This document shows, piece by piece, positions 555-18,930 of a stretch of DNA of 22,570 nucleotides (position 1 is its first letter; each line of letters begins with the position of its first letter). The stretch is from Bdellovibrionia bacterium. GTDB taxonomy: Bacteria; Bdellovibrionota; UBA1018. The notes below the pieces were generated by a model that was not told where the DNA came from, did not search any database, and saw nothing but the letters and a program-made list of their open reading frames with translations. The translations under genes and the position numbers were made by a program. The DNA lies in NCBI GenBank assembly GCA_049424145.1, contig JBMSSC010000035.1, positions 1 through 22,570 of the forward strand, in the 5' to 3' direction.

Positions 555-1973
555 TTAGGAATATTTTCTACTTTTTCCTCGCTCAGATATGGAACTGTTT
601 GAAAAAATAAAAAAAGCGTAAATGCCATGCAAAAAACGCAGGCCTTTAATACTCAATAAGAAAGCTCCATTAGTACTGATATAAATAAGTACGGCCACAA
701 AGCCAAAATACCACATAATATAATTCATATGTACATGAACATAGGAGTGACCCTTAGCCAAGCAAAACCAACTTAATGGACCAAAGACATATACAACAAA
801 GAAACTAAAGTCTCGCCATCGGCTTCTGTGTTGGGTAAAAAACTTATATCCAATTGTTGCTAATGCCGTCGAGTTCAGGAGGATAAACCTCTTGCCATGA
901 ATACGATAAATTAAATCAGTGCTCCATGACTTAATATATGTTTTTAGAACACTTATTAGACTTGCATTTAATGAAGCCGCCGAAACAGGATCAAAAGAGG
1001 AGGGAGAACCATATGTTCTACGCTTAACGTCTTGGTTCCATATTGCTGTTAATCCCTCAAAAACCGTATTCCCTCGGAAGGTTGAATGAACTAGGATTGC
1101 AGCTAAAAATCCACTTACAGCAAGGCCAAAAGTAATACTCGCATATCTCAATGAAGAAGTCCTATTGAGTCGAGGACTGATTAAGAACGGGTCTATCAAA
1201 AATATAGCACAAGAAAACCAAATTATCGTTGAGATGTATTCATACCCACAAAGGCATTTTATAAATATAGATATAAAAAATAGGAATAGAAAGACGTTTT
1301 TTTGGAAATGATTAATATAGAAGTATGCAAGCATAGAAAAAACAGCGGGTGAAAACCACAGAAAGGGAGACCAATAGAGATTCCTAGCAAAAGAAATCAT
1401 CCATGGAGAAAAAGAAACAGACACTAAGAATGCAAGAGCAAATCCACTTCCAATGGTCTTACAAAATCCAAGAGTTAAAAAAACTAGGGAAATAGATGTT
1501 AGTAGTGCACATAAATAATTCAAGGATTCTATTTGTCTTATTTTTAAATTATTATACAAAAAAGAATATACCAAACCTTGTAATCCGACCTGGCTGGTGT
1601 ACGGGAAAAAATTAAGTTTTTGATTTTTATCAACATTTAAAAGATCATAGCCTTCAAGAATATGTTTCAAATCAGAAGAAAATCTGTCAGACGTACTAAA
1701 CCCAAGGTTTGCCTTTTCCTTTACGTTGGGATGGTTTTTGTCGAAGACGATTTTCCCGACAACCAATGCCTCGGAATCTTTTTGAAAATTAGAAAAGAAA
1801 TCTTTTTCCACGAGGTTAAAACTATTTTTGTAGAAAATGCTTGTTTGTATTAAACAAATTAATATTACAATAAAAAATTGAACTAAACGCCAAAAGCCTT
1901 GAGTTTTCCGCTGCGCAGTCCAGTTCATTACTCGTTTAGTGTATGTAAACTGATCTAAAATCAAATTTTTCAT
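555..1973 (-). CDS. Polytopic membrane protein, putative GT-C-fold (GtrC-like) glycosyltransferase
   Basis: 472 aa: N-terminal TM helix, a large loop with acidic DSE motif, then many hydrophobic segments. AT-rich gene in a glycan locus. Function inferred from topology and context. Confidence 0.55.
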   Translation of the reverse strand: MKNLILDQFTYTKRVMNWTAQRKTQGFWRLVQFFIVILICLIQTSIFYKNSFNLVEKDFFSNFQKDSEALVVGKIVFDKNHPNVKEKANLGFSTSDRFSSDLKHILEGYDLLNVDKNQKLNFFPYTSQVGLQGLVYSFLYNNLKIRQIESLNYLCALLTSISLVFLTLGFCKTIGSGFALAFLVSVSFSPWMISFARNLYWSPFLWFSPAVFSMLAYFYINHFQKNVFLFLFFISIFIKCLCGYEYISTIIWFSCAIFLIDPFLISPRLNRTSSLRYASITFGLAVSGFLAAILVHSTFRGNTVFEGLTAIWNQDVKRRTYGSPSSFDPVSAASLNASLISVLKTYIKSWSTDLIYRIHGKRFILLNSTALATIGYKFFTQHRSRWRDFSFFVVYVFGPLSWFCLAKGHSYVHVHMNYIMWYFGFVAVLIYISTNGAFLLSIKGLRFLHGIYAFFIFSNSSISERGKSRKYS

Positions 1974-3392: not shown

Positions 3393-4988
3393 TTAATTTT
3401 TAAATATCAGGCTCCGTACCTGATTGTTTTTCAGGAGATCTTTTCGAATATAGTAAGGCTTTTCTGGAACTTGTTGATAGTTCAAGTCAACGTAATTCTG
3501 GATACATGTAGCATAGCTCCGCCAGGGAAATCTGCCCCAAAAAAGGCCTTGATCAATCCAAATGACTTTGGGTGCTGCCTCCTGAATTTGCTGACAGGCA
3601 TTGATCATCACTCCGAACTGAGGGTTCTCATTGTATTTCTCTTGCCAGGGTAAATAGAAGAAATGACCAGATGCTGGTAACCGATCCGAAGCAAGGTATT
3701 CAAAATTATTAAATGGATAAGAAATAATTCGATCTTCTGGTTCGGTAATTTTTTTAACTAACTGAGAAAATTCAGTGTCCATTAATATTTTTCCATTTGA
3801 GAGTAATTGTCTTTTCTTTGGAAGAATAAGTGACGCTTGGACTGTGAAAAAGGACAAGACGCCAAAGATAGCAATACGAAACAGGCTAGAATCGGTCTCT
3901 AGAAATTTAAAAAATGGAGCGAAAAATGGAAGAACAGAATAGAAAAATGGCATTCCGTGAAATCCTCCTCCGCGCATGAGCAAGCTCAATAGTGCAATCA
4001 CTAGAAAAATCGGTCTCCAGTAAAATCGACTATTATTTCTTCCTAAAACATATAGAGCACGAAGCAAGACTAGAAATGAGGTTCTAGTAGAAGAGTCGCT
4101 CAGTACTGTGTTTAAGGCGGTGATCACTAAGTCCCATCCTGGTTTTAAGCCGGTATAAAGAGGCAGTAATTTTGAATTCAGATAAATGTGAAATGCAAGG
4201 TAACCCGCAAGAGAGCCGAACTTGGCAAGAAATGCTAGGTTCACCAAGAGTCCTGAGCAGAGTCCGATAGCACTGGGTAGAATCCATGCTTGGCGAAAAG
4301 AGGCTAAAAAAATGAGTCCTGAGGTCGGTAGGTATGTAATAGATAAAAATGGAAGGGATGCAAGGAGGAAGTTGCCCATGAATATAGAATTTTTTCTTAA
4401 TACATTTTGATTGTAAATTGATGGGAGGCTGAAATTTGAGATAATAATAGTTAAAAAAATCCCAGCAATCGTTTGATATTTGTACATGTGTCCGAAAATT
4501 TTCGGCATGAAAAAGATGATCGCGGCCACCGAGAATGTAGATGCAATCAATCGTAGTCTTTTAGTCTCAATGATGGGAGAATTATAGATCGATAGCACAG
4601 CCAGGATTTGAAGTATTGCAATGAATAATCGATGCCCTTGGATTCCGCAGTTGGTTATTTTCTCGGCGATTAATCCTGGAAGAAAAGTAAGAGGACCATG
4701 GTGGTTAAAGATCTCAGAATAGAGACGCATTCCATGGTGCATCATTTTTACACAAACAATTGTTTCGGATTCATCACCCCATTCCTGAAAATTCAAAAGA
4801 TGGTATTGGTATCGAAGGCTGAAAAGACAAAATAGGCCAAGAAGAAAAGTGAGGACGATGTTGAATTTTTCTTTTTGGTTCCATCCGTTTATGGTTTCTC
4901 GAAGGGTAGGCAAGTCTATTCTTCTCAAGAGGGGGTATCCTTTTTGAATAAAATCGAATGTGGGCGCTGAATGTGAGTCAATTCTCAA
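3393..4988 (-). CDS. ArnT/PMT-like GT-C membrane glycosyltransferase (putative)
   Basis: 531 aa. After TM1 comes WGDESETIVCVKMMHHGMRLYSEIFNHHGPL, the DE...G..LY..F.H.PL first-loop motif of GT-C proteins. Many TM segments and a soluble C-terminal domain follow. The TTG start is uncertain. Confidence 0.7.
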   Translation of the reverse strand: MRIDSHSAPTFDFIQKGYPLLRRIDLPTLRETINGWNQKEKFNIVLTFLLGLFCLFSLRYQYHLLNFQEWGDESETIVCVKMMHHGMRLYSEIFNHHGPLTFLPGLIAEKITNCGIQGHRLFIAILQILAVLSIYNSPIIETKRLRLIASTFSVAAIIFFMPKIFGHMYKYQTIAGIFLTIIISNFSLPSIYNQNVLRKNSIFMGNFLLASLPFLSITYLPTSGLIFLASFRQAWILPSAIGLCSGLLVNLAFLAKFGSLAGYLAFHIYLNSKLLPLYTGLKPGWDLVITALNTVLSDSSTRTSFLVLLRALYVLGRNNSRFYWRPIFLVIALLSLLMRGGGFHGMPFFYSVLPFFAPFFKFLETDSSLFRIAIFGVLSFFTVQASLILPKKRQLLSNGKILMDTEFSQLVKKITEPEDRIISYPFNNFEYLASDRLPASGHFFYLPWQEKYNENPQFGVMINACQQIQEAAPKVIWIDQGLFWGRFPWRSYATCIQNYVDLNYQQVPEKPYYIRKDLLKNNQVRSLIFKN

Positions 4989-5734
4989 TATAGCCTTTTG
5001 GTGTGGAATTTTTATTTTTTAAGATACCGACTCGTAAGGATGTGTCAATTTTTTTCTATTTGATGGAGTTCATCCAAAATAGTTCGCAGCAGATTTTGAC
5101 ATGCTTTTGAGATCGATGGATAAGTTTTGAGTCGTTCGAATCATCCTCTTCTGGGAGTGACCGTGGCGTCAATTTTTTTGGCCGTCTCTTTCTACCTGTA
5201 TACCATGGTGGGTTTCTAGGGGCTCGATTCCATTAATTCTGCGGCCGTACCTCGTTTGGGGATCTCAATGTGACTTGGATGCCAGGGTTGATTCTGGACT
5301 TGTAATGGCCATCAACTGGGCTCCCTGGGTAGAGTCTTTGCGGTTGGGTGCAGGGTTCTCCATCGCTTTTGACGTTATCTGGGTTACTCTTTTGTATCTT
5401 GTTCCGTCTCCTGTCTTGGTTTTTTCAGTTATTCCTCAGGTTTGGGTTATTTTGGACTTTGTGTGGCCTGCAATCGAATTCAGCGTTGGGATGAATATCC
5501 GTTTGTATGAATCAGTCATCTTTCGATGAGGAGCTGTACTCTACAGAGTGTTGGTCAAAAGTTGTAAAGAAAGAAAAAGAGTTGGCTCAAGTCCAGGATT
5601 TGAGTATAGTTTGGGAAAAAATTTACCTCAATTCAAGCGCTTTTTTCAAATTGAAGCTGAATAGGTCTAGCAGGACGTTAAAAAGTTCCTTTGAGAAAGA
5701 TTCTGTCTGCTGCGCAACTTTGGAGAATTGTGAT

Positions 5735-6733
5735 ATGCCTTTTTATCCAGTCTTTCTGTCGGTTGTAGTTTTAGTCCGCAACCAGGAGGATCAACTTGAG
5801 CGGATTCTTTCACGGGCCGTACAGCAGCTCTCATCACTTGTGGTTGACTATGAGCTGATCGTTGTTGACAACTCGTCGGAGGATGGCAGTGTCAACCTAC
5901 TGAAACGGCTGACAGCTCAGGAGGGCTTGCCTAATCTTCAGGTTTACGCTCTTACCAAAGAAGTGAGCCCCGATACGGCTGCCTGGGTAGGTTTGGAGAA
6001 TGCGTTAGGTGATTTTGTAGGAGTGATTGATCCTTTAACTGACGACATCGGTTTTCTTCCGAAAATGCTCGAGAAGGCGGTCAGTGGGGTAGATGTAGTT
6101 TTTTCAAATAATCTTCAAAAGGTCACACAAGGGTTCTTCTATCGATTCGCACATGGCTTATTTCATGCCGTTTATCGAGTTTTTAACGGAATTCATCTGG
6201 CTAAGGAAGCCCCAAGTTATCGCCTCTTAAGTAAGCGTGTGATTCATTTCATTCTTCAGCACACCCAGCCTGCTCTCACTTATCGTTATCTTCCGGCAAC
6301 AGGCGGGTTTTCACGTGTTAATCTCGAGTATAGCGCGTTGCCTAGTGCAGCAAATACAAAAAGACTGAGTGAAAGCTTTGATCGTGGTTTGAGACTTTTG
6401 GTCTCCTCATCTCATGCTCCATTGCGACTTGTTACCAGTCTCTCGCTGTTTGGTGCGGCTGCAAATCTCATTTATTCAGCCTATGTGGTAGCGATTGCAA
6501 TTTTTAAGGCAGATGTAGCGGCAGGTTGGGTGAGTTTATCTTTACAGCAGTCGGGGATGTTTTTTCTCATCTCCCTGGTGCTTTTGGTTTTAAGTGAGTA
6601 CATTCTACAGATGGTCAGTCTCTCCAATGGGGGAGTTCTCTATCATGTCGGGCAGGAGTTTACGAGCGCTCGCATTACGCGTAAGGAAAAGTTGAACGTC
6701 GAGATCGTGGCTCCCGTTGGAAAAGGGACATAA
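5735..6733 (+). CDS. GtrB/ArnC-like family 2 glycosyltransferase with degenerate DxD
   Basis: Likely start ATG 5735 (GGAG upstream; MPFYPVFLSVVVLVRN). YELIVVDNSSEDGS, GT-A domain and two C-terminal TM helices. VIDPLTDD stands where GtrB has MDADLQD. Confidence 0.8.
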   Translation: MPFYPVFLSVVVLVRNQEDQLERILSRAVQQLSSLVVDYELIVVDNSSEDGSVNLLKRLTAQEGLPNLQVYALTKEVSPDTAAWVGLENALGDFVGVIDPLTDDIGFLPKMLEKAVSGVDVVFSNNLQKVTQGFFYRFAHGLFHAVYRVFNGIHLAKEAPSYRLLSKRVIHFILQHTQPALTYRYLPATGGFSRVNLEYSALPSAANTKRLSESFDRGLRLLVSSSHAPLRLVTSLSLFGAAANLIYSAYVVAIAIFKADVAAGWVSLSLQQSGMFFLISLVLLVLSEYILQMVSLSNGGVLYHVGQEFTSARITRKEKLNVEIVAPVGKGT

Positions 6734-6738
6734 GTTCG

Positions 6739-7896
6739 ATGACTCGAACGGTTGATGCGGTGGTGATTGGCGGTGGCTTCTATGGAGCAGTCATTGCCCT
6801 GTACCTAGTCAAACAAAGGCAAATCAAGCGTGTCCTTCTCGTTGAAAAGGAGGACCGCCTTCTCAGGAGAGCCTCCTATCATAATCAGGCAAGAGTTCAT
6901 AACGGGTACCACTATCCCCGCAGCTTTACGACGGCTTTTAGGAGTCGGGTGAACTTACCTAAATTTATTCAGGATTGGCCCTCTGTGGTCAAACAAGACT
7001 TTATTAAACTCTACGCCATTGCTCGACGGAATTCGAAAGTGACGGGTAAACAGTTTGAGCGATTTTGTCAAGAAATTGGGGCGCGGCTCGACCCTGCAGA
7101 TCTGAGGTTAGTTCAGCTTTTCGAGCCGAGGTTGATTGAATCGGTCTTTCAAGTGCAGGAGTATGCTTTTAATGCGGATCGGCTCGCTGCTTGGGCGCAG
7201 ACGGAGATCTTAGCAGCAGGCGTTGAAGTTAAGCTTTGCTCCCGGGTAATCAGTGTATCCCGATCTTCGCGTCTGCCATTGAGTGTGTCTATTCTTGATT
7301 CTCAAGGAAGTCTGCAGAGCGTATCGAGTCGATATGTTTTTAATTGTACTTATAGCGGACTCAATCAGCTGAAGGGTGAGTTTCCGGGGACTCAGACCAC
7401 TCTAAGGCATGAAATTACGGAGATGGCATTGATTCAAGTGCCGTCAGTGCTCCAAGATGTGGGAATCACCGTTATGGATGGGCCATTTTTTTCGATCATG
7501 CCCTTTCCTGCACGAGGGCTCTATACCCTTTCGCATGTGCGGTACACCCCTCACTTGAGTTGGGAGGATCGTATAGGAGCGGATCCTTATCAGAGCCTCC
7601 ATGAGTATTCAAAAGAGTCTCGCTTTGATCGTATGATCAGAGATGTTTCACGGTACCTTCCTGTGATTCGCGAAGCAGTACAGGTGGATTCTTTGTTTGA
7701 AGTCAAAACGGTTTTAAAAAAAAATGAGGGAGATGATGGTCGTCCCATCCTCTTTGAAAGGCATACGGAGCTGCCGGGTTGTTATTCCGTACTCGGGGGA
7801 AAGATTGACAATATCTATGATGTGGTGAGTCTCTTGGATCGTGAGATTTTTGAAGGCAGCTCGATTCATTCAGTCGAGTTGACTCAAGCAAAGTAA
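6739..7896 (+). CDS. FAD-dependent oxidoreductase (DAO / L-2-hydroxyglutarate oxidase-like fold)
   Basis: VVIGGGFYG dinucleotide-binding motif, LLVEKE, and ASYHNQARVHNGYHYPRS. Starts 5 bp after the GT2 stop. Confidence 0.85.
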   Translation: MTRTVDAVVIGGGFYGAVIALYLVKQRQIKRVLLVEKEDRLLRRASYHNQARVHNGYHYPRSFTTAFRSRVNLPKFIQDWPSVVKQDFIKLYAIARRNSKVTGKQFERFCQEIGARLDPADLRLVQLFEPRLIESVFQVQEYAFNADRLAAWAQTEILAAGVEVKLCSRVISVSRSSRLPLSVSILDSQGSLQSVSSRYVFNCTYSGLNQLKGEFPGTQTTLRHEITEMALIQVPSVLQDVGITVMDGPFFSIMPFPARGLYTLSHVRYTPHLSWEDRIGADPYQSLHEYSKESRFDRMIRDVSRYLPVIREAVQVDSLFEVKTVLKKNEGDDGRPILFERHTELPGCYSVLGGKIDNIYDVVSLLDREIFEGSSIHSVELTQAK

Positions 7897-7959
7897 AAGA
7901 GACAGGCTGAATTTGAGTCTGAGACCGCGATTTATATTGGTCATCAGAATTTAAAATGC

Positions 7960-9999
7960 ATGTTTGCCTTCACTAAAAATGAAATGAATAACGAGGGGAA
8001 AGCGTCTGTGATTTTAGCATCCGAATCAAAAAAATGGAGAAGTTCCTTCTTCATGAGTTGCGTTATTGTTTGTTCTTTATTGATTATTTTGAGTTGTACT
8101 TCCTTAAGAAGTGCAATTGATATTCCTACTTTTCATTTGGATGGAGCCTTTCAGACTGCTAGTGGTCTTTTTAGGTTAGATTCTGGGCAGATGCCAGGGC
8201 GTGACTTTTTTCCGTATTTAGGGATTGGCCCGCTTTTTTTACTTTTTCCTTTTTTTAAAATATTTGGAGCAAAATTATTTGCAAGTGTCTTTTCAGCGAA
8301 ATTCGTCACCTTAACGGCAGGTTGGCTAATTTTTTCCTTCCTTTGGCACCTAATTTTTATTCCGAGGCGGGTTTTGTTTTCATTGGCTGGAGGAGCAACT
8401 TTTTTTTTCTTGTGCCTCTGGAGTGTAGACCAATTACCTGAGCAGAGTCGATTTTCTTTTTTGTTTTCTCCGGGAAATTCTCTCAGGCCGATTCGCTCTT
8501 TTGCGCCCTATTGGGTTGCAGCAGGAATCTATTTCGCTATTCAAAAGCTTCGAAGAGGGGCTTTGTGTGATGTTCTTGTGGGGTCGATAATTGGACTTTC
8601 TCTTCTATGGTCTAACGATTTTGCCCTCCCCAGTGGCTTTTTATTTTGCCTTTTTTATTTTTTCTATCTGCATTCTCAACGCTGTGATTTGAAAAAAAGC
8701 TTTGTTCGAGTGATCCCCACTGCGGGCTTGGTGATGTTTTTGATATTGAGTCTCGTTACTCAGGGTTACCCGGTTCAAATGCTAAAATACAACTTTCTTG
8801 ATGTTGCAAGGGATCAGTGGTGGTTTTTTGGTCCCTATAGCCCAGCTCGGCGAGTATTTGAGGCTTGGCAAGTTCTCTGGTTATTCTATCGGTCAAACAT
8901 TTATTCAATGACCATTTTGGTGATTTCATTTATTTCAATGATCAAGAAAAATAACAATGAATCACAACTTCTTTTTTTTATTGGAATGACGCTGTTTTTA
9001 GGAGGAAGTCTTGCTTCGCTCGGTGGGCACCTAGAATATGCCTATTTTTATGCTTTTCATTGGTGGTCATGGATCATGACTTTTTTTTGTGGATTTAGGG
9101 TGATTCAGAATTTTTTGCTAAAAAGAAACCAGGTTGCCTCTCTAATTGATATCACCCTCTTCAATCGATTTCTCTTGGTCTTAATGGTTTTTTTTCTAGG
9201 TGCAGCCGCAAGTGGGTTTGCTCATTATCAACGCGAATTAAAGGTGGCAAGTCGAGATCCCAGTCGGTTCTTTGTCGAGGAGTTAGGCGGCTACCTGGAT
9301 CAGAGCTGGTCAAATTACATTTCTTATTCGCGTCAGGCGAAAGATAAAAAAATAATCGAAGAATATTTTGGGATCTTCAGTGCTATGAATAGAAGTCTTC
9401 CTCCATGGCCTGTTGACTCCGTTATCCACGCTTTAGGACGTGTTCGGGACGAGGCTGCATCGAAGATGTCTGAGGTAGATCTCGTGGTATCAACCCGATA
9501 CGTAACTTCAAGAGATTGGCAACCGTGGAACTTGAGTCAGAGCTTTTGGTTCTATGAGCAGCTCCTGAATCGTTGGGAGCCAGATTTTACCTCTCCCAAT
9601 ACGGTGGTTTGGCGGAAGAGTCCTTCCCCTCGAATCCATGAAAAAGTCGGCTGTCGAATCACTGAGCAGCAAAATGCCTTCTTTCTTGATTCAGACCTAG
9701 AGGGCTATTACGCTGTTCGTGTTACATACGAATCAACAGGTGCGGGGCGTTCTCTTTTGATGCTGAAGAATAATATCTCTTATGCAGCAGATGCCCGAGG
9801 TTACGTTTCATTGCCGCACGGTCGTTCAACGGTTATGATCCCTGTGCTGATTCAGAACAAGTTAGACAACTTTTTTGACTTAAAAATTATTGGGGGTTAT
9901 AAGGATTCGTACCATTCTTCGATTACGGCTTGTGAGGCAGAGCGGATTAGTTTCAAAGGGAATGATGTGTTACCCAGTCATCCTTGGAGGCCACTTTAA
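7960..9999 (+). CDS. Large polytopic membrane protein, putative GT-C glycosyltransferase
   Basis: 679 aa. First loop HLDGAFQTASGLFRLDSGQMPGRDFFPYLGIGP resembles the D.G...RL..G..P.RDFF...GP loop of ArnT-like proteins. Multi-TM core plus a soluble C-terminal domain of about 250 aa. Confidence 0.6.
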   Translation: MFAFTKNEMNNEGKASVILASESKKWRSSFFMSCVIVCSLLIILSCTSLRSAIDIPTFHLDGAFQTASGLFRLDSGQMPGRDFFPYLGIGPLFLLFPFFKIFGAKLFASVFSAKFVTLTAGWLIFSFLWHLIFIPRRVLFSLAGGATFFFLCLWSVDQLPEQSRFSFLFSPGNSLRPIRSFAPYWVAAGIYFAIQKLRRGALCDVLVGSIIGLSLLWSNDFALPSGFLFCLFYFFYLHSQRCDLKKSFVRVIPTAGLVMFLILSLVTQGYPVQMLKYNFLDVARDQWWFFGPYSPARRVFEAWQVLWLFYRSNIYSMTILVISFISMIKKNNNESQLLFFIGMTLFLGGSLASLGGHLEYAYFYAFHWWSWIMTFFCGFRVIQNFLLKRNQVASLIDITLFNRFLLVLMVFFLGAAASGFAHYQRELKVASRDPSRFFVEELGGYLDQSWSNYISYSRQAKDKKIIEEYFGIFSAMNRSLPPWPVDSVIHALGRVRDEAASKMSEVDLVVSTRYVTSRDWQPWNLSQSFWFYEQLLNRWEPDFTSPNTVVWRKSPSPRIHEKVGCRITEQQNAFFLDSDLEGYYAVRVTYESTGAGRSLLMLKNNISYAADARGYVSLPHGRSTVMIPVLIQNKLDNFFDLKIIGGYKDSYHSSITACEAERISFKGNDVLPSHPWRPL

Positions 10000-10263
10000 G
10001 CGGATCTAATACTCCTCCCAGTTCAGTAGTAGACTTCCGTGTTTCTGAGTGACCAAAGGATGGAAAAGAGCTTGTGCAGTGGAAAGTATACAATAGCTGG
10101 GAGTATAACGACCGTTCGATGTCTCTGGGAGACCTGAGTCGGGTTTGGTTGTTATCAAGGCTTCGGTAGGTATTCTAGAGCGGTTCTAGATTGATTAAAA
10201 AATCATACTCCGAGTTGAGGGGCAGGCATTCTGAGAATGCTCGGGTGAAATTGAGGTGTTTGA

Positions 10264-11064
10264 ATGAGTAATGCACTAATTGGGTATTCTGGATTTGTCG
10301 GAGGAACACTTTTAAGACAGGCGTCGTTTGATGCTCTTTATCGCTCTACGAATATCGATCAGATCGATCATCGTGAATTCGATCAGGTGGTCTGTGCAGG
10401 CGCTCCTGCTCAGAAGTGGCTTGCCAATCGTAATCCTCAGGACGATCGACGTCAGATTGAGTCGCTGATTTCTCATCTCAAGCAGGTGAGATGCAATCGC
10501 TTCATCTTAATCAGTACGGTGGATGTTTTTAAGAGTCCCAAGGGAGTTCATGAGGGCACTGAAGTTGACGAAGGCGGCCTCCATCCATACGGTCTTCATC
10601 GACGATGGCTGGAGAAGTTTGTTGAGGGGCATTTTCCCAACCACTTGATTGTCCGTCTTCCGGGGCTCGTAGGCCCAGGTTTGCGAAAGAATGTGATTTT
10701 TGATTTTCTCAATCAGAATAACATTCATGCGATTGAAAGCCGGAGCGTGTTTCAGTTTTATCCCATGGTTAATTTGTGGTTTGATGTTCAGGCCGCTCTG
10801 CAGAAGGGGCTTCATCTGATCCACCTGACTGCTGAACCTGTTTCTGTTGCCGATGTTGCCCTCCAAGGCTTTGGCCGATCGTTCGCTCAGAGATTAGAGA
10901 GTCAGCCGGTTTGTTATGATATGCAGACCCAGTATGCGGAAGTGTTTGGAGCCAAGGGGCGTTACCAATATTCTGCGCGAGAGACCTTTCAGGCAATTCG
11001 AGCGTACGCTCAGTCGGAGTCGAACACACTCAAGGCAGCTTCCGCTCAGGGTGAGCTCCGATGA
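10264..11064 (+). CDS. Atypical SDR / NAD-dependent epimerase-reductase family protein
   Basis: LIGYSGFVGG Rossmann motif, LISTVDVF and IVRLPGLVG. YGLHR replaces the YxxxK catalytic motif. GAGGTG SD upstream. Confidence 0.85.
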   Translation: MSNALIGYSGFVGGTLLRQASFDALYRSTNIDQIDHREFDQVVCAGAPAQKWLANRNPQDDRRQIESLISHLKQVRCNRFILISTVDVFKSPKGVHEGTEVDEGGLHPYGLHRRWLEKFVEGHFPNHLIVRLPGLVGPGLRKNVIFDFLNQNNIHAIESRSVFQFYPMVNLWFDVQAALQKGLHLIHLTAEPVSVADVALQGFGRSFAQRLESQPVCYDMQTQYAEVFGAKGRYQYSARETFQAIRAYAQSESNTLKAASAQGELR

Positions 11065-11888
11065 GACTTGCCATCTCGAATATTGCATGGGACGTTTCTG
11101 AAGATGAAGCAGTGGTTGACCTTTTAAGGCAGTATGGGTTGGATGCCATCGACATAGCGCCTGGAAAGTACTTCTCTCATCCACGTGAAACGTCTCTGGC
11201 TCAGATTGAGAAAGTCCGAAGTTGGTGGTCAGATCGCGGTTTTGAGATCACGGGAATGCAGGCCCTGTTATTTGGTACGGTAGGCCTCAATTGTTTTGGT
11301 TCTCCCGCTGTTCAGGAAGCTATGCTGGAACACTTATCCGCTATTTGTCGGATTGGTTCTGCCCTCGGGGCTAAGCGACTTGTTTTCGGATCCCCAAAAA
11401 ATCGCGATCGGAGTGGTTTGAGTGATGACGAGGCGCTCGAGGCGGCAGCCGGTTTTTTTAGGCAGCTCGGACAGATTGCATTGAGCCATGGGGTTATCAT
11501 TTGCTTGGAGCCCAATCCCGCTGCATATGGGGCCAACTTTATGACTACCAGTTCAGAAACTGCTCATGTGGTGAGGAAGATTGACCACCCCGCCATTCGA
11601 ATGCAGCTCGATACCGGGGCACTAAGCATGAATGGCGAATCGATTGAGTCGGTGCTGAAGGATTGTGCGGATTGGATTGGTCATATCCATGCCAGTGAAC
11701 CTCATCTCGTCCCTCTTGGGGATAGTGGCACGGACCATGGACGCTTGAGAGCCGCTCTTCAAAAGTATGCTCACTTGGAGTTGGTCTCAATTGAGATGCT
11801 GGCAACCCAAGGTGAGCCTCATCTCAAGGCGATTGAGCGTGCCTTGGTCTATGCAACAAGTGCTTATGATTCATTGCGAATGAATTGA
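11061..11888 (+). CDS. Sugar phosphate isomerase/epimerase (xylose-isomerase-like TIM barrel)
   Basis: Metal-ligand pattern CLEPN, QLDTG, HIHASE and SIEM. ATGA overlap with the upstream SDR. Confidence 0.85.
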   Translation: MRLAISNIAWDVSEDEAVVDLLRQYGLDAIDIAPGKYFSHPRETSLAQIEKVRSWWSDRGFEITGMQALLFGTVGLNCFGSPAVQEAMLEHLSAICRIGSALGAKRLVFGSPKNRDRSGLSDDEALEAAAGFFRQLGQIALSHGVIICLEPNPAAYGANFMTTSSETAHVVRKIDHPAIRMQLDTGALSMNGESIESVLKDCADWIGHIHASEPHLVPLGDSGTDHGRLRAALQKYAHLELVSIEMLATQGEPHLKAIERALVYATSAYDSLRMN

Positions 11889-12003
11889 CTAGCAGGGTCC
11901 TTGAGCTTTTTGCAGTAAAATTGGGTTTTAAACTGAGCAATGGCTCGTATTGACTGGAGTGATTGAAGTATGAGTGGTCTGAGTTTAACCGAGAGCGAGT
12001 CTT

Positions 12004-12858
12004 ATGATGAACCCATCTGAAAATAATCGATTTGCCCACCGAGATGAATGGCAAGTGCCAGACATGGAAGTTGTTTATTGGGAGGGAAAACGCTCAAAGT
12101 ATTGTGTGGTAATCCCCGTCATTAACGAGGGTGAGCGGATTAAAAGCCTTCTCAAGCGAATGGAAGTGCTCCGTATTTCAGAGTGTTCAGACATTATTCT
12201 AGTCGATGGTGGCAGCACAGATGGCTCTTTAGAGGTGCAGTCACTGCAGCGGCTTGCTGTGAGGGGACTCGTTGTTAAGCGAGGTCCGGGTAAATTAAGT
12301 GCTCAACTGAGATGTGCTTACGCATTTGCTCTTGATCAGGGATATGAGGGCATTGTCACGATTGATGGTAATGACAAAGACGACCCTGAGGCCATTCCAC
12401 GCTTTTTGATCGCTCTTGATGAAGGCGTTGATTTTGTGCAGGCCTCTCGCTTTATTCAAGGGGGGGTTGCTGAAAATACCCCACGGTCAAGAGATTTTGC
12501 AATTCGATACATTCATGCGCCTTGTCTGAGTTGGGCCTCAGGGTTTAAATGGACGGATACGACTCAAGGTTTTAGGGCTTATAGTCGAAGAATTCTGCTT
12601 GACCCGCAAGTGGCGCCTTTTCGAGATATTTTTTTAAGCTATGAGCTTCTCGCTTATCTCTCCTATAAGGCGCCCAAGTTGGGCTATAGGTGCATGGAAA
12701 TTCCTACTATTAGGCGGTATCCTGTTGGAGAGGTTCCAACAAAAATTAGTGGTTTGAAAGGAAATTGGGCTGTTTTAATCACTCTAATTCGTACATGTGT
12801 GGGTAGGTATGATGTTATTGACGATGGCCAAGCGGTTATGAAGGCGGCAAACCGTTAG
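12004..12858 (+). CDS. Dolichol/polyprenol-phosphate glycosyltransferase-like GT2, no TM helices
   Basis: VVIPVINEG, ILVDGGSTDGS, TIDGNDKDDP, VQASRFIQGG and TDTTQGFRAYS are DPM1-like motifs. Confidence 0.85.
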   Translation: MMNPSENNRFAHRDEWQVPDMEVVYWEGKRSKYCVVIPVINEGERIKSLLKRMEVLRISECSDIILVDGGSTDGSLEVQSLQRLAVRGLVVKRGPGKLSAQLRCAYAFALDQGYEGIVTIDGNDKDDPEAIPRFLIALDEGVDFVQASRFIQGGVAENTPRSRDFAIRYIHAPCLSWASGFKWTDTTQGFRAYSRRILLDPQVAPFRDIFLSYELLAYLSYKAPKLGYRCMEIPTIRRYPVGEVPTKISGLKGNWAVLITLIRTCVGRYDVIDDGQAVMKAANR

Positions 12859-12898
12859 TTGTGGGCTACTTCATCTTGATCGCACTTGATTTCAGTCT

Positions 12899-13960
12899 TG
12901 GTGAGCTCTGTAACTTTCAGAGGTCATTGGACTAAAGTTTTTGTATACCATTCGATGGTTTTGGTGAGTCCAGTTTCAAAACCATATGAGGGCTTCCAAT
13001 TTAATAGATTTTTCGCCTTATCGCTATTGAGACATTGCACGGGAATTTCATTGGAGGCTTGGTCTAAGACTTGAGGCTCAAGATCTGTGCGGTTCATTAG
13101 TGAGAGAATCGCATTGACGACGTCAATGACTTTAAGTCTGAGTCCATAAGAAAAGTTAAATGCCTCACCCGCAAAGGCTCCGCTACTCATCTTTTGTGCC
13201 AAAGTTAGGTACGCATGGACACCATCTTCTACAAAAAGGTAATCCCGAATCAGCTGTCCGTTGCTCCGAATGATGGGTTTCTTGTTAGAAAGAACACTTC
13301 GAATCGTTCCTGGAATAATACGACTATAATTTAAGTCTCCGGGTCCAAAGAAGTTCCCGCATCGAGTGACAGTTAAGGGTAGACCATAGGAGACGAAATA
13401 CGATCGGGCAATGAGGTCGGAGCAGGATTTTGAAACATCGTAGGGATGTTCTCCGTTTAGAGGGAAGCATTCGTCGTAAGCTTCTCCTTTCAGATTACCA
13501 TAGGCCTTATCCGACGAGGCGAGGATCACACGTTGAATCCGTTTTTGGTGCACTCGGCAAGCTTCTAGGAGATTCCAGGTGCCTTCAATATTGGCCTTAA
13601 ACGTGGCTAAGGGGCTTTGGTTGGCTTGCCCGACTAAGGTCTGAGCCGCCAGGTGGAACACAGTATCGATCTCATATTCGTTTAAAATTCTCTCCAATAG
13701 AGCGTAGTCTTCGATTGCTCCCCGAACTGAAATAACCTTGCTGAAGAGGTTCCAGTCTGACTCACGTGAGTAAAAAAGGGATTGAGGAATTGAATCTCTT
13801 ACTAAGGCTACGACCTGTGCTCCAGAATGAACTAAGGCTTTTGTAAGATGTGAGCCTAAAAGGCCCGTTGCACCGGTGATGAAAACTTTTGAGTTTTTCC
13901 AAGACTCCGAGGTATTCTTATGACTCATCAGCATCTGGAGAAAGTTACTGAAATTCACCA
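12899..13960. repeat. Imperfect inverted repeat pair (12899-12918 and 13940-13960) bracketing the RfbG-like gene
   Basis: Left arm TGGTGA-GCTCT-GTAACTTTC; right arm reverse-complemented TGGTGA-ATTTCA-GTAACTTTC. Confidence 0.4.
12924..13934 (-). CDS. CDP-glucose 4,6-dehydratase-like extended SDR (RfbG/DdhB-like)
   Basis: W...KVFITGATGLLG, VFHLAAQ, SSDKAYG and YDVSK; adjacent to rfbF. Start probably ATG 13934 or 13928 rather than 13961. Confidence 0.75.
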   Translation of the reverse strand: MLMSHKNTSESWKNSKVFITGATGLLGSHLTKALVHSGAQVVALVRDSIPQSLFYSRESDWNLFSKVISVRGAIEDYALLERILNEYEIDTVFHLAAQTLVGQANQSPLATFKANIEGTWNLLEACRVHQKRIQRVILASSDKAYGNLKGEAYDECFPLNGEHPYDVSKSCSDLIARSYFVSYGLPLTVTRCGNFFGPGDLNYSRIIPGTIRSVLSNKKPIIRSNGQLIRDYLFVEDGVHAYLTLAQKMSSGAFAGEAFNFSYGLRLKVIDVVNAILSLMNRTDLEPQVLDQASNEIPVQCLNSDKAKNLLNWKPSYGFETGLTKTIEWYTKTLVQ

Positions 13961-13977
13961 TGGGAGTCTAATAAAAT

Positions 13978-14838
13978 ATGACAAAACCAGCAGAGGTGCC
14001 CGTCTTTATTCTGGCCGGGGGTTTGGGTACGAGAATTTCCGAAGAAACCAATTTAAGACCTAAGCCGATGATCGAGGTCGGCGATATACCCATCTTGGTT
14101 CATATCATGCGTTGGTATTATGCACATGGCTTCAATGATTTTGTCATTTGTGGGGGGTATCGATCTTGGGAGATTAAACAGTACTTTTTAAACTACGAGT
14201 TTCGTGTGAATCATCTTCTCATTGACCATAGAGAGGGTGGTTTGAGCGCCTTGACTCAGAAAAAAAAGCGAGTGGCTGATATTATGGGTCAAAATCAGGC
14301 TCAAGAGCGTTGGCGTATCCGGGTGATTGATACGGGTTTAAATTGCATGACAGGGGGCCGGATTGCACGAGCATTCGATGAGATTCATGGGAGCGATCGA
14401 TTTGAACACTTTGCGATTACCTATGGAGATGGAGTTTCCGATGTCCCCTTGGGTCGGGAGCTGGAGTTTCACTTGGAGCATCAGAGAATTGGAACCGTCT
14501 TAGGTGTAACTCCGTTAGCCCGGTTTGGAGAGCTCGAAGTGAACTCAGATGGACGCGTCGATGGATTTTTAGAGAAACCTGAGATGAACCAAGGTTCAAT
14601 CAATGGGGGTTTTTTTTTCATGAAGCGTCAGTTTAGGGAATTTCTTAGCACGGATGCGACTTGTATCTTGGAGCGACAGCCCCTGGCCACTCTTGCTCAA
14701 AGGGGAGAACTCATGATGTTTAAAAATCCAGGATTTTGGCACCCCATGGATACGCTTCGGGATAAAAACTACCTGCAGGAGCTCTGGGATAAGGGAAACC
14801 CTCCCTGGCTCTATCGGTCGGGAGTTAGTCGGTCTTGA
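13978..14838 (+). CDS. rfbF: Glucose-1-phosphate cytidylyltransferase
   Basis: ILAGGLGTRISEET..RPKPMIEVG, DTGLNCMTGGRI, TYGDGVSD, INGGFF and FWHPMDTLRDK..L.ELW...PPW. Confidence 0.92.
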   Translation: MTKPAEVPVFILAGGLGTRISEETNLRPKPMIEVGDIPILVHIMRWYYAHGFNDFVICGGYRSWEIKQYFLNYEFRVNHLLIDHREGGLSALTQKKKRVADIMGQNQAQERWRIRVIDTGLNCMTGGRIARAFDEIHGSDRFEHFAITYGDGVSDVPLGRELEFHLEHQRIGTVLGVTPLARFGELEVNSDGRVDGFLEKPEMNQGSINGGFFFMKRQFREFLSTDATCILERQPLATLAQRGELMMFKNPGFWHPMDTLRDKNYLQELWDKGNPPWLYRSGVSRS

Positions 14839-15895
14839 TCAGAGGAATTTTTCTTTGGGACGCATGCCACTTGAATGTTCTTAAAAGGGCCTCCCTGAGG
14901 GGAATCTGAAGCGACAGGCCGAGTTCCTTTTTGGCTCTTTCTGTCTCAGGTACGTAGCGGGAGATTGAGGCGTCATTCTTGGGCTTCACTAGTAATCGGG
15001 GTTGGATGAGCTGACCGGAGAGTTCGAACCAGGCTTCACTTACGCTCTGAGCGAGAGCTGCAATGTTGACTGATTCCTCTGATCCAACGTTATAGCTCCT
15101 TAGGTTCTCACCAAAGGTGAGTATTTTGAGTAACCAAGTGACTAAGTCCGTAGGGTACATATAGGATCGACAGGGGGTTCCATCTCCCGTTATGAGGATA
15201 TCTCGTCCAGACAGGCAGTCGTTGATGAAGTTGCCGACAGCAAAATGTCGATCCAGTGGAAGGTAAGGACCAACGAAGGAAAAGCAGCGCGCAAAGCTCA
15301 CGAGCTGTCCCGTCTCCTTGAAATGAAACGTGCCCATGAGTTCCGAGACACGTTTGCCCTCTCCATAGGCGCTTGAGCTCAGGTGGGTTTCAGGTGCAGT
15401 GAGGGTCTCATCGGGTTGATGGATCTGCTGTGATTCCTGTTTTCCGTAGACAGCACCAGAGCTAACGATTAAAATTTTCTCAGGTTTGCTTTGCTTGCAG
15501 TTTTCAAGCAGGTTCTTTGTGCCGTTAACAATAACGTCAAACATTTGAGAAGGCTGCTCTTGATTTAGGCTTGCGCTTGCATCAGTTGCAGCATGAATGA
15601 CGTAGTCGGTTTTCTTTGTCCATTTAAATTCTCGAATATCCCCAGTGATAAATTGGATCCCACGTGCTTGAAAATCAGGGAAATCCGTAAGAAAAGATGA
15701 TGGGTTTCTCGAGAGAACATGGATCTTCAGATTTAAATCACAATGCGAATTGGCATAATCGAGGAAACCTAAAATCCACTTACCAAAAAAACCCGTTCCG
15801 CCCGTGAGAAGCAGAGATCTCCCTTGAAGTTTTTCTAGGGAAGGCTTGCTTTGTCTACCAATGAGATTAAAGTCAAAGTTTAGGAACTCTTTCAT
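14825..15895 (-). CDS. NAD-dependent epimerase/dehydratase family SDR; candidate YerF-like reductase
   Basis: LLTGGTGFFG, VIHAA, SSGAVYG, YGEGK and ARCFSFVGP. Start set at ATG 15895 (MKEFLNF) to avoid overlap with ddhC. The 3' end overlaps rfbF by 14 bp. Confidence 0.8.
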   Translation of the reverse strand: MKEFLNFDFNLIGRQSKPSLEKLQGRSLLLTGGTGFFGKWILGFLDYANSHCDLNLKIHVLSRNPSSFLTDFPDFQARGIQFITGDIREFKWTKKTDYVIHAATDASASLNQEQPSQMFDVIVNGTKNLLENCKQSKPEKILIVSSGAVYGKQESQQIHQPDETLTAPETHLSSSAYGEGKRVSELMGTFHFKETGQLVSFARCFSFVGPYLPLDRHFAVGNFINDCLSGRDILITGDGTPCRSYMYPTDLVTWLLKILTFGENLRSYNVGSEESVNIAALAQSVSEAWFELSGQLIQPRLLVKPKNDASISRYVPETERAKKELGLSLQIPLREALLRTFKWHASQRKIPLIKTD

Positions 15896-15934
15896 TGCTA
15901 AATCTTCTTTTCCTAGGATACCAAAAAAAATAGT

Positions 15935-17275
15935 ATGAAAACGAATGAAAACAATCCGCTCCGAAGTCAAATTCTCTCACTTTCTCGGGTTTTTTTCCAA
16001 GAATCTCTTCGAGCGAAGGAATTTATTCCAGGCGAATCATATGTTCCTGTGACGGCAAAAGTGATGGATGGGGACGACCTAGCTCATCTCGTGGACGCAT
16101 CGTTGGACCTCTGGCTTACGGCGGGAAGGTTTTCTAGGGAGTTTGAAGCCAGGCTACCCACTCTTTTCTCCAGAAAGACAAGCGCACTTTTAGTCAACAG
16201 TGGTTCGAGTGCCAATCTCATTGCCGTCTCAAGTTTGGGCGCTCAGATGTTACCGGGACTCAAGCTGCGGCCCTTGGAAAAAGGCGACGAGGTGATCACA
16301 GCGGCTGCTGCTTTTCCAACGACGGTGAATCCAATCATACAGAATCAATGGGTCCCTGTTTTTGTTGATGTCGAACAAAGAACTATGAACGTTAGCCTGG
16401 AGGCTCTCCAGGCTGCACGGACTCCAAAGACACGAGCGGTGGTTCTTGCCCATACTCTGGGAAACCCCTTTCGGGCGGATCGCATTGCGCAGTGGTGCCA
16501 AGAAGAGGGCCTTTATTTAGTGGAGGACTGCTGTGACGCGCTGGGTGCAACTATTGGAGATGCTCCTGTAGGTTCCTTTGGAGAGTTTGCCACGTTGAGC
16601 TTTTATCCTGCTCATCACGTGACGATGGGCGAGGGGGGCGCGGTGATTCCTAAAGATGGTCGCTGGAGGAGGGTTGCTGAAAGTCTCAGAGATTGGGGAC
16701 GCGATTGCTGGTGTGAGCCAGGGGTGGATAACACCTGTAAGAAGCGCTATGAATGGAGTTTAGGCGAATTGCCCTGTGGGTACGATCATAAATATACCTA
16801 TTCGAATATTGGGTATAATTTAAAAGCAACAGACATGCAGGCGGCTTTGGGCTTATCTCAACTCAAGAAGCTAAGTGGATTTGTCCAGCGGAGAAGAGAG
16901 AATTGGAAAAGTTTAGAAGCAGGAATCAAAACTTCAAAACTCTTGACCGAACACCTAACCCCGATTGTTCCAACTGAGGAGACGAATCCAAGTTGGTTTG
17001 GCTTTCCAATGTATTGCTCGGGTGCATTAGATCGCGACAAGCTGGTTCGACTTTTGGAACAGAAAAAAGTTGGAACACGTCTGGTTTTTGGGGGGAATTT
17101 AACCAAGCAGCCTGCCTATAAAAGCGCTGTGTATCGAGTCTCAGGTGAGCTAAAAGTAACCGATCAAATCATGAGAAAAGCTTTTTGGGTTGGGGTTCAT
17201 CCTGCACTGGGCGATCGCCAGATTCAATACGTCCTTGAGGTTTTGGAACAGTGTGTTCGTTCTCTGCTTGAGTGA
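15935..17275 (+). CDS. rfbH: CDP-4-keto-6-deoxy-D-glucose 3-dehydrase (E1, RfbH/DdhC)
   Basis: NSGSSANL and EDCCDALG. SFYPAHHVTMGEGG has His in place of the Schiff-base Lys, the E1 hallmark. WGRDCWC.PG.DNTC Fe-S motif and GYDHKYTY. Confidence 0.95.
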   Translation: MKTNENNPLRSQILSLSRVFFQESLRAKEFIPGESYVPVTAKVMDGDDLAHLVDASLDLWLTAGRFSREFEARLPTLFSRKTSALLVNSGSSANLIAVSSLGAQMLPGLKLRPLEKGDEVITAAAAFPTTVNPIIQNQWVPVFVDVEQRTMNVSLEALQAARTPKTRAVVLAHTLGNPFRADRIAQWCQEEGLYLVEDCCDALGATIGDAPVGSFGEFATLSFYPAHHVTMGEGGAVIPKDGRWRRVAESLRDWGRDCWCEPGVDNTCKKRYEWSLGELPCGYDHKYTYSNIGYNLKATDMQAALGLSQLKKLSGFVQRRRENWKSLEAGIKTSKLLTEHLTPIVPTEETNPSWFGFPMYCSGALDRDKLVRLLEQKKVGTRLVFGGNLTKQPAYKSAVYRVSGELKVTDQIMRKAFWVGVHPALGDRQIQYVLEVLEQCVRSLLE

Positions 17276-17529
17276 GTGAGCGTTTTTAGTTTTTGATTGG
17301 CTCGGCTAAAGAACACTTCCTTTTGATCGGGGAAGGCTCAGGTCTGCTTTGTGTGAGTTTTTTTCCAAAAAATGGGAAGGAACTCAGCGGAGCGAAAATT
17401 TCATCCAAGGCCACCGGATCGAGTAGAAAAATGTGGAACACTTGATTTAGAGCATCGCTCCGTAGCAAAGCTTAACATGAAACATCAGAGCAATCCGGAG
17501 ATGGGGCTCGAATGAAAAAAGTAGATCTC

Positions 17530-17555
17530 AAAAAAAAGCTCCTTCTGAAGGGGTC
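17530..17555. terminator. Weak candidate terminator between the convergent rfbH and GT2 genes
   Basis: A8 tract followed by the short hairpin CTCCTT-CTG-AAGGGG; T8 follows on the minus strand. The stem is short. Confidence 0.25.
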
Positions 17556-17719
17556 AGATTCAGGTCTAGAAATCCTGTTGGATCAAATGGGTGATCCTGA
17601 AATTTTTTGATCTTCTGGATTGAGCCTAACAAGAGTTGATTTTCTAAATCTTATGATAAATTCTGAATATTAAGCATGAACCATACAAGATATTCTGGTT
17701 CCCTATAAAGACGAGCGGA

Positions 17720-18655
17720 TCAAAAGTTGATTCGCTCCTTTTCAATGACCAATGGACGTTTTAAAACTTGTGTATGAATAAATCCGATGTACTCCCCAAT
17801 GATCCCGATGAAAAATAGCTGTATTGACATAAAAAAGAAGGCACCTACTAAAAGAGGGGCAAGGCCCATCTGAAAGCTGTCCCAGTAGATCAGCTTGAGC
17901 AGAGTATAAGTTAACGTGATGAGAAGTCCTAAGAATGAGCAGAAAAATCCAAGGATTGTGGCAAGCCGCAGCGGAACCTTAGAGTGACTGGTGATTCCGA
18001 GCATAGCCATATCATAAAGCTTGTAGAAGTTGTTACTTGTTATGCCTCGTTTGCGAGTAGGTTGATTAAAGCTGATTGTAGCTAGCGGGAATCCGAGTTC
18101 AGAAATCAAGCCCCTAAAGTAAGGATAGGGATCATGAATCTTTTGAAGGATTTGAATAACCTTTCGGTCAAAGAGCCCAAACCCGGTGCTGTTTTTGACA
18201 ATCTGAGTGTCTGCGAGTGAATAGATCAGTGAATAATAGGCCTTGCGGATCAGAAACATGATCGGAGATTCTTGGCTGCTGTCTTTTACCCCGAGAACAA
18301 CGGGAATCCCTTCATTCCATTTTTCCAGAAATTTTTCGATTAGTTCAGGAGGGTCCTGAAGGTCAGAGGCCATGATGATCACGGCGTCTCCTGTTGCTTG
18401 AAGCAGCCCATAAAAAGGAGATCGAATGTGGCCAAAGTTTCTTGTATTAAATATCAACTTTATCTTCTTATCCTGTTCGGCATACATCCTGAGGATATCT
18501 CGAGTTCGATCTTTTGAGTCGTTGTCAATGAAAATGTGCTCATAGTGAGAATGGTTCAATTTCTGAAAAACAGCTCGGATTCTCAAGATTAGCTCATGAA
18601 TATTTCCTTCTTCATTAAAACAAGGAGTCACAACACTAATGAGCTTAGATTCCAT
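17720..18655 (-). CDS. GtrB-like undecaprenyl-phosphate glycosyltransferase (GT2)
   Basis: ISVVTPCFNEEGNI, FIDNDSKD, NTRNFGH, IMASDLQDPPELI, TGFGLFDR, two C-terminal TM helices and IGIIGEYIG...RPLVIEKERINF. Confidence 0.9.
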   Translation of the reverse strand: MESKLISVVTPCFNEEGNIHELILRIRAVFQKLNHSHYEHIFIDNDSKDRTRDILRMYAEQDKKIKLIFNTRNFGHIRSPFYGLLQATGDAVIIMASDLQDPPELIEKFLEKWNEGIPVVLGVKDSSQESPIMFLIRKAYYSLIYSLADTQIVKNSTGFGLFDRKVIQILQKIHDPYPYFRGLISELGFPLATISFNQPTRKRGITSNNFYKLYDMAMLGITSHSKVPLRLATILGFFCSFLGLLITLTYTLLKLIYWDSFQMGLAPLLVGAFFFMSIQLFFIGIIGEYIGFIHTQVLKRPLVIEKERINF

Positions 18656-18930
18656 TTGAGTTCCTTTTCTTCGAGTTTAAACCATGGAATGACTTATTAG
18701 TTTTCGCCTAGAATGGGAATAGTGTCTAGATCTGTTTTAAGATCTGAGTGCTCTAAGTGGCTTAGTTTTTTATTTTTAATCTGGAGATGAGAGTGACGCG
18801 AGTTCTGGCGGGGGAGGTGAAATTCCTTGATCAGAAACTTAGAGCTGTGACTGTTATTTTTCTGTGAGCAGATCTATAGCGATTCTGGTGGGCTTGCTAT
18901 CTGGGTGACGAAAAATTTATAAAATTTTAG

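Follow-up and report, generated by a model that had tools for sequence, protein, structure and literature searches.

Side-chain glycosylation in Shigella and Salmonella follows a three-component pattern, GtrA/GtrB/GtrC (PMC11127046, available in part, as are other sources marked in this way). Flavin oxidation followed by NAD(P)H reduction, yielding a new donor for a GT-C-fold glycosyltransferase, is found in the DprE1/DprE2 pair and in the pentofuranose route of Citrobacter (PMC11127046, in part). In the accessible part of that paper, the authors were aware of no epimerases in O-antigen side-chain systems beyond these pentofuranose cases. The present analysis concerns a six-gene module at positions 5735..12858 of a 22,570-nucleotide stretch of DNA from a Bdellovibrionia bacterium, here called the window, which is the whole of contig JBMSSC010000035.1 (C35) of a 2.69-Mb genome with a completeness of 95% (G000). 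The module is real and widespread, and represents a mobile variant of the three-component pattern. Its lipid-carrier and GT-C architecture is very probable, and the sugar made by the window copy is probably 4-deoxy-D-arabino-hexose (ara4dHex). The full mechanism set out below, in which a mobile side-chain glycosylation cassette makes this sugar from a nucleotide-linked hexose, has a little less than an even chance of being right.

Like GtrA/GtrB/GtrC, the cassette combines a polyprenyl-phosphate glycosyltransferase of family GT2, a small flippase (in relatives of the window copy) and a variable GT-C, and is carried on a prophage remnant and a small plasmid. It differs in that the loader is a soluble GT2 resembling dolichol-phosphate mannose (DPM) synthase, the GtrB homologue is predicted to be dead and three remodelling enzymes have been added. 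The pentofuranose route differs from the window in its phosphoribosyl pyrophosphate (PRPP)-dependent prenyltransferase, whereas the window has a DAO-fold oxidase, a TIM barrel acting in between and a likely hexose product. A preliminary description of the module had set it apart from that route, and a Pfam scan of 16 window open reading frames (ORFs) agrees, with neither a PRPP prenyltransferase nor a DprE1-type oxidase found and the oxidase assigned to DAO. In desosamine synthesis, DesI and DesII remove the 4-OH of a nucleotide sugar with an aminotransferase and a radical S-adenosylmethionine (SAM) enzyme. The same 4-OH removal is proposed here, but neither enzyme type is in the cassette. The genes and associated features are as follows.

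5735..6733, + strand: gene A, full-length GtrB homologue with two C-terminal transmembrane (TM) helices; predicted pseudo-enzyme and predicted membrane partner of B
6739..7896, + strand: gene B, DAO-family flavoprotein; predicted sugar C2 dehydrogenase
7960..9999, + strand: gene C, GT-C-fold membrane glycosyltransferase (predicted) with a C-terminal beta-rich domain; the variable, acceptor-choosing gene
10264..11064, + strand: gene D, atypical extended short-chain dehydrogenase/reductase (SDR); predicted NAD(P)H keto-sugar reductase
11061..11888, + strand: gene E, metal TIM barrel of ketose 3-epimerase fold; predicted to abstract H3 from a 2-keto sugar and eliminate the 4-OH
11889..12003, no strand: gap between E and F, 115 bp; site of a 118-aa SMR/EamA flippase gene in most proteobacterial copies, absent here
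12004..12858, + strand: gene F, soluble DPM-synthase-like GT2 with a DGNxKD motif; likely active undecaprenyl phosphate (Und-P)-sugar synthase
555..1973, - strand: second cassette-type membrane protein, likely GT-C, with matches in cassette loci
3393..4988, - strand: third cassette-type membrane protein, likely GT-C, divergent from A, with matches in cassette loci

The six co-oriented ORFs, their types and their positions are as first described. The tight coupling attributed to them holds for two of the five junctions, namely the 5-bp gap between A and B (6733/6739) and the ATGA overlap of D and E at 11061, but at the other three the genes are 63, 264 and 115 bp apart. Pfam assigns A and F to Glycos_transf_2, B to DAO (3.4e-18), E to AP_endonuc_2 (8.9e-23), D weakly to NAD_binding_10/Epimerase and C to no family. 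NCBIfam matches of the six proteins are to broad families, with every score far under its cut-off. The open frame of A reaches back to 5507, but 5735 is the likely start, as the extension of 76 codons has no match in the 80 loci described below. An Rfam scan gave 0 matches, promoter and terminator scans gave no signal above chance, and scanning six window proteins against PHROGs found no family for them.

GTDB genomes were scanned with B as the seed, which gave 584 relatives, and the analysis is of the best 80 of these 584. Many of these loci are related and not independent, the profiles were built from the same loci and the thresholds were set by the authors; L numbers label the loci throughout. 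A is present in 78, D in 67, E in 66 and F in 64, with all five core genes in 63. A large multi-TM gene lies near 55 of these 63 and an SMR/EamA gene near 43. There is thus a conserved five-gene core, usually beside a variable GT-C, whose co-occurrence is far above chance, which the preliminary description had put forward as a neighbourhood check on its proposal. The full core is also carried by 39 of 80 metagenome loci, many of which are short. Gene order differs between loci, and the kept loci span Proteobacteria, Cyanobacteria, Gemmatimonadota, Planctomycetota, Actinomycetota, Chloroflexota and others; B has 1,129 representatives at E <= 1e-30. Family alignments A2–A6 are subsets of the loci (57, 49, 61, 57 and 47 sequences), with the B row of L049 dropped from A4 on account of a stop in range.

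Full-length B (44–49% identity) occurs in only two of 60 relatives of the window genome while proteobacterial copies reach 65–70%, and further copies lie on a prophage remnant and a small plasmid. For these reasons the module appears to be a mobile cassette. On the 10.8-kb Psychrobacter plasmid pA22P4 (L082), a seven-gene cassette is the sole cargo beyond replication and mobilisation genes, with gene A present though unannotated. On the E. coli plasmid pCUPF09A (L081), the cassette is flanked by a phage lysozyme and an integrase remnant, where seroconversion genes usually lie. Here A is annotated as frameshifted, and the same plasmid has a second cassette-like place. A 28% B homologue in G001 has no cassette genes around it.

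The assignment of a sugar comes from E. coli. A 2019 review proposed that the genes between gnd and ugd of E. coli O162/O101 serve the side-chain ara4dHex, the first of them being broken by an insertion sequence (IS) in O101 and the ara4dHex side-branch being present only in O162; the biosynthesis pathway was termed unidentified (PMC7685785). A 2026 paper keeps the gene-sugar link as a hypothesis (PMC13168486, in part), and transfer of ara4dHex in Franconibacter was likewise described as unidentified in 2024 (PMC11231755, in part). Glycans containing ara4dHex are reported from F. pulveris (PMC11231755, in part) and, according to the title of a reference, from C. braakii PCM 1531; the F. pulveris strain with a solved structure is G3872. 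Orthologues of the oxidoreductase, SDR, xylose-isomerase-like protein and two GT2 proteins of the proposed O162-type cassette are all in the window. The E. coli genes comprise orthologues of all five core genes with a terminal membrane protein, as in the window, in the order B-A-D-E-SMR-F-membrane protein as against A-B-C-D-E-F without the SMR gene. The review counted six genes whereas the annotation shows seven. Identity between window and E. coli proteins is 24% for A, 42% for B, 62% for D, 57% for E and 68% for F.

The D-E-F DNA and the Psychrobacter cassette DNA each match eight of 5426 E. coli genomes. Six chromosomal copies are of one type, and the three of these examined all lie between gnd and ugd beside O89/O101/O162 wzm-wzt. 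Two have an intact B, and the third (L204) has IS4/IS3 at the start of B, the product of which is 357 aa and lacks the FAD-binding motif. This E. coli version is found in 6 of the 5426 genomes, which are exactly the 6 with wzm-wzt at least 99% identical to L201, while the other 309 wzm-wzt carriers lack it. In three of the 6 the match starts only at base 14, as the IS state would predict. The remaining two of the eight (SY3626 and plasmid pCUPF09A) carry the cassette in different contexts. Close B orthologues lie in C. braakii clusters (93–94% to the E. coli gene) and an F. helveticus cluster (85%), with C. freundii also named.

The link between sugar and cassette is a correlation. The O101/O162 link points to a likely 4-deoxyhexose instead of the rare epimer or ketose initially proposed. 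The module had also been considered uncharacterised. This stands for the enzymology, as no biochemical study of the cassette or of ara4dHex synthesis was found in the literature searched, from which most subscription journals and supplements are excluded, but not for the cassette, which had been flagged in E. coli O101/O162 (PMC7685785). The cassette and its candidate sugar are thus described already, while no published account was found of the dead GtrB, the proposed C4 deoxygenation without radicals, the swappable reductases or the phage DNA context. Two other glycans were considered as matches. K4 kfo fructosylation had no support and was set apart without comparing kfo sequences, and the xylulose O antigens likewise had no support.

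The two GT2 proteins differ in their active sites. A matches Synechocystis GtrB over its full length (profile E 1e-51, profile positions 5–303) and retains the juxtamembrane and two-TM architecture of GtrB/ArnC, with TM helices at 236 and 266. The DXD motif, R122, D157 and R200 are needed for GtrB activity (PMC4728340, in part). In A the equivalents of D96, R122, D157 and R200 are L101, N126, S161 and S204. Across the family the DXD and D157 are kept in 0 of 57 sequences each, while 12 sequences retain Arg at the R122 site and 20 at the R200 site. This loss of residues tied to GtrB activity suggests that A is likely a pseudo-enzyme and a non-catalytic partner of the FAD enzyme B, which argues against its original casting as the sugar loader. 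F is the likely loader. The best PDB profile match of F is dolichol-phosphate mannose synthase (5MLZ, E 3.6e-19) and no TM segment is predicted. N41, E42, D73, D126, R149 and D185 are conserved in 49/49 family members and D121 and R237 in 48/49, within the motifs NE, DGGSxD, DGN (replacing DXD), SR and D185, with a distinctive DGNxKD. On these motifs, F is likely an active Und-P-sugar synthase, which would supply the cassette with a polyprenyl-phosphate glycosyltransferase with an intact active site.

A tracks B, not F, across loci. Five loci (L013, L017, L132, L139, L162) pair A and B with another GT2, an aldo-keto reductase and GtrA, while in L024 and L165 A and B are alongside a canonical GtrB, with a classical SDR also in L024. 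Among the B-seeded loci, every replacement of D/E is accompanied by a different GT2 type. In a tree of 74 B sequences (FastTree, midpoint root, many weak nodes), these variants are scattered over several positions within the ordinary cassettes, and the A-associated B proteins mostly form one clade (support 0.72). A 781-aa protein, P0156, has B as its C-terminal half and may be an A-B fusion.

B is nearest to glycerol-3-phosphate oxidase type II and L-2-hydroxyglutarate dehydrogenase. Its best PDB profile match is L-alpha-glycerophosphate oxidase (4X9M, E 4.9e-6), with which it has the active-site His in common, and H54, R52 and K355 are invariant (61/61). The score against the glycerol-3-phosphate oxidase type II family model is 19.9 bits with a cut-off of 460, making B a distant relative only. 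Glycerol-3-phosphate oxidase oxidises the carbon adjoining the phosphate-bearing carbon. On a sugar 1-phosphate this position is C2, and B is by this analogy predicted to oxidise C2 of a sugar 1-phosphate-type substrate.

E has a confident structural model (predicted local distance difference test score, pLDDT, 96.3), which aligns with 2ZVR over 257 residues (Z 28.6, root-mean-square deviation 2.4). It has the fold and the E/D/H/E quartet of the AP_endonuc_2 TIM barrels, which include ketose 3-epimerases, YcjR and the dehydratases IolE and AsbF, the quartet E150/D184/H210/E245 being kept in 57/57. However, E is at most 18% identical to these proteins in structural alignments and far under every NCBIfam cut-off (31.6 bits against a cut-off of 300 for the ketose 3-epimerase model). 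The IolE model TIGR04379 is matched by 28 of 57 family members, best 1.5e-7, with no match to the window protein at E 0.01. In ketose epimerases, a His after the Asp and an Arg after HxxE have a substrate-binding role. Both are missing from E, in which DTGA and HASEP replace DTFH and HxxExxR. As the likely product is a 4-deoxyhexose, E likely eliminates water rather than solely isomerising. D has the motifs GxxGxxG, Ser84 and YxxxR, with G7/G10/G13, S84, Y109 and R113 invariant in 47/47. Its named PDB profile matches are RmlD and GalE-type nucleotide-sugar enzymes, at E >= 2e-6.

C had been described as a GT-C-like membrane protein, and its model (pLDDT 93.5) bears this out: the first 33 Foldseek ranks are solely GT-C-fold proteins, including AglB, AftA, ArnT, ALG12 and DPY19, so that C is predicted to be a GT-C-fold transferase. 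It has 360 homologues among 8000 candidates scored, its family is in 12 of the 80 genome loci and it does not match the terminal gene of the E. coli cassette. The gene at 555-1973 has 24–33% matches in 10 of 80 cassette loci, 34.6% identity to the terminal gene of the E. coli SY3626 cassette and Atlas structural neighbours that include PMT_2 clusters (TM-score ~0.5). That at 3393-4988 has eight predicted TM segments and is 50% (L010) and 46% (L019) identical to the gene directly after F, and on this evidence is likely a third GT-C. Both are similar to variable membrane genes found in other cassettes, so that the unit probably reaches further left than 5735, beyond the six-gene boundary first drawn. 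The two upstream genes have a GC content of 34% and 39% against 49% for the genome, and an IS21 IstB fragment lies between them at 2517-2873.

The seventh gene of the standard cassette is an SMR/GtrA flippase, present in 43 of 63 full-core genome loci and undetected in 20. No GtrA, SMR or MATE flippase was found in the window contig with Pfam and a cassette-SMR profile, and a search of the E-F gap found no SMR remnant. The ORF at 5275-5529 was considered as a flippase and rejected, having no Pfam match and no match in the 80 loci. Unlinked candidates in the genome are one GtrA (contig C93) and one SMR (contig C6).

The B-D-E set also occurs in viruses. Scanning viral DNA with the B alignment gave 24 loci, a viral scan with E alone found nothing, and annotated phages gave one match only, partial and unannotated. 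L099, L108, L112, L113 and L119 carry B-D-E without A, F or a GT-C. In L109, L117 and L118 (giant-virus metagenome-assembled genome contigs) and in L110, B lies beside a fused D-E protein of 489–548 aa. In L099, a 385-kb viral contig, 8132-13773 encodes thymidylate kinase-like and thymidylate synthase-like proteins, a second kinase, B, D, E and a T4-type beta-glucosyltransferase (E 4.5e-39). This looks like a DNA hypermodification block using a remodelled sugar. More distant viral B genes were also seen. In L101/L102 (180–189-kb viral contigs, 8918-12837), the genes after B encode an aldo-keto reductase and a QueC-like protein (scanned in L101), which may be a further block for modifying DNA or tRNA. 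In L100, L103–L107, L111, L114 and L115, B is beside Gfo/Idh/MocA (Pfam-confirmed for L100 and L103–L105) or classical SDR reductases in glycan clusters. A Mesorhizobium plasmid (L083, 5989-10054) has a distant B-D-E without A or F, amid IS elements.

From these genes we infer the reactions, donor and acceptor of a six-step route. B, held at the membrane by the dead A, would oxidise the 2-OH of a nucleoside diphosphate hexose (UDP-glucose or GDP-mannose). A ketone at C2 makes the 4-OH a beta-leaving group, and E would remove H3 of the 2-keto sugar and eliminate this hydroxyl to give a 4-deoxy-2,3-diketo sugar. Myo-inosose-2 dehydratase catalyses an elimination of the same type. D would then reduce to the arabino configuration, at both ketones from a glucose donor or at C3 only from mannose, if B returns the hydride. 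By homology, F would load the finished sugar on Und-P, which an unlinked flippase would move outward. Finally, C, and perhaps also the products of 555-1973 and 3393-4988, would on their predicted folds transfer it to a surface glycan. Reasoning from configuration, ara4dHex differs from glucose by inversion of C2 and C3 and loss of the 4-OH and from mannose only at C3 and C4, and B, E and D would account for all three changes. The preliminary scheme of an oxidise/isomerise/reduce triad thus keeps its lipid-linked donor and its oxidise/modify/reduce logic, but the middle step is likely an elimination and not mere isomerisation.

Whether remodelling occurs on the nucleotide or on the lipid is less settled, with the nucleotide level judged about twice as probable. 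It is favoured by four observations: triads occur in viruses without lipid genes, L099 has a T4-type glucosyltransferase, D is related to nucleotide-sugar enzymes and the loader co-varies with the reductase set. The same product and chemistry could nonetheless arise on the lipid, with F loading a common hexose, A presenting it to B, and E and D finishing at the membrane in the manner of DprE1/DprE2. This is unlikely, though the strongest of the alternatives. The tie of A to B speaks for it: A keeps the GtrB juxtamembrane and TM parts, accompanies B in 78/80 loci, even beside a canonical membrane GtrB (L024, L165), and its associated B proteins are mostly one clade. Epimerisation on Und-P has also been argued for the pentofuranose route (PMC11127046, in part). 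Conversely, the viral triads lack any polyprenyl glycosyltransferase, D resembles nucleotide-sugar enzymes, and a loader of a common sugar would not need to co-vary with the reductase set. A slightly less likely alternative, near the initial idea, has no deoxygenation, with B oxidising, E epimerising C3 and D reducing to allose, altrose or another rare epimer. E has its best sequence and fold matches among ketose 3-epimerases and YcjR and keeps both catalytic Glu residues, and EryB/EryC offer a precedent of a dehydrogenase and racemase acting on a phosphorylated polyol (PMC11508834, in part). However, the sole glycan tied to the cassette has a 4-deoxy sugar, the cassette holds no other deoxygenation candidate, the His and Arg typical of ketose epimerases are missing from E, and D, E and F are 57–68% identical to the E. 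coli copies. It is improbable that the window genome has only an incomplete or silent cassette, as the missing flippase between E and F, the IstB remnant and the lack of a promoter signal might indicate. The six frames are unbroken and their catalytic residues conserved, 20/63 full-core loci likewise lack a detected flippase, and the genome has its unlinked GtrA and SMR. Least probable of all is that the module makes fructose or xylulose as a lipid-linked ketose for side chains, in spite of the ketose-enzyme fold of E and the unexplained ketose donors of some O antigens (PMC7685785). The xylulose serogroups of E. coli are O95 and O97 (PMC7685785) while the cassette tracks O101/O162, and a C1-linked hexose could not become a ketoside without moving the phosphate.

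Several observations weigh against the proposed nucleotide-level route to ara4dHex. The constant A-B pairing fits a lipid-linked substrate at least as well, the likeness of B to GlpO is weak and confined to its N-terminal half, and 56 of 57 E family members score best against epimerases or isomerases and worse against IolE. The sugar correlation comes from one natural knockout and is a hypothesis in both PMC7685785 and the accessible part of PMC13168486. The E. coli records compared state no serotype, and the O162 reference sequence is not among them. The Citrobacter and Franconibacter links are at species or genus level and not at strain level, SY3626 and pCUPF09A carry the cassette outside any solved glycan context, the window A and B are just 24% and 42% identical to those of E. 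coli, and no flippase is linked here.

Taking the bacterial and viral loci together, B-E-D may represent a non-radical C4-deoxygenation of nucleotide sugars. In bacteria, it would be coupled to a GT-C and a scaffold of inactive GtrB and would convert serotypes. Giant viruses and phages would put it to use in glycans of their own, and in one or more large phages a T4-type glucosyltransferase would place a deoxysugar as a coat on the phage DNA. B would then be a general C2 oxidase with the product set by a swappable partner (SDR with TIM barrel, aldo-keto reductase, classical SDR or Gfo/Idh/MocA). This wider proposal is tentative, and held with less confidence than the mechanism for the window cassette.

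The window region 12924-22225 contains CDP-glucose pathway genes (rfbG, rfbF, an SDR, rfbH), a canonical GtrB, a thiamine pyrophosphate enzyme and an HpcH-like aldolase, a set that resembles a branched-chain CDP-sugar synthesis such as that of yersiniose. Within 12924-17275 the strands alternate, rfbG (-), rfbF (+), SDR (-) and rfbH (+), and the starts of the divergent rfbG and rfbF are only 16 bp apart. Across the genome, neighbouring long ORFs lie on the same strand in 780 of 1066 pairs.

The analysis gives each gene of the cassette a testable role and provides a chemical route for ara4dHex, a sugar whose biosynthesis is listed as unidentified (PMC7685785). If true, this would explain the serotype difference between O101 and O162 and predict the sugar in many unstudied bacteria, given the 584 GTDB matches and 1,129 B representatives. 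Glycoengineering would also gain a new deoxygenation chemistry and a scaffold in the form of a pseudo-glycosyltransferase, and the viral loci would point to an undescribed sugar in phage DNA.

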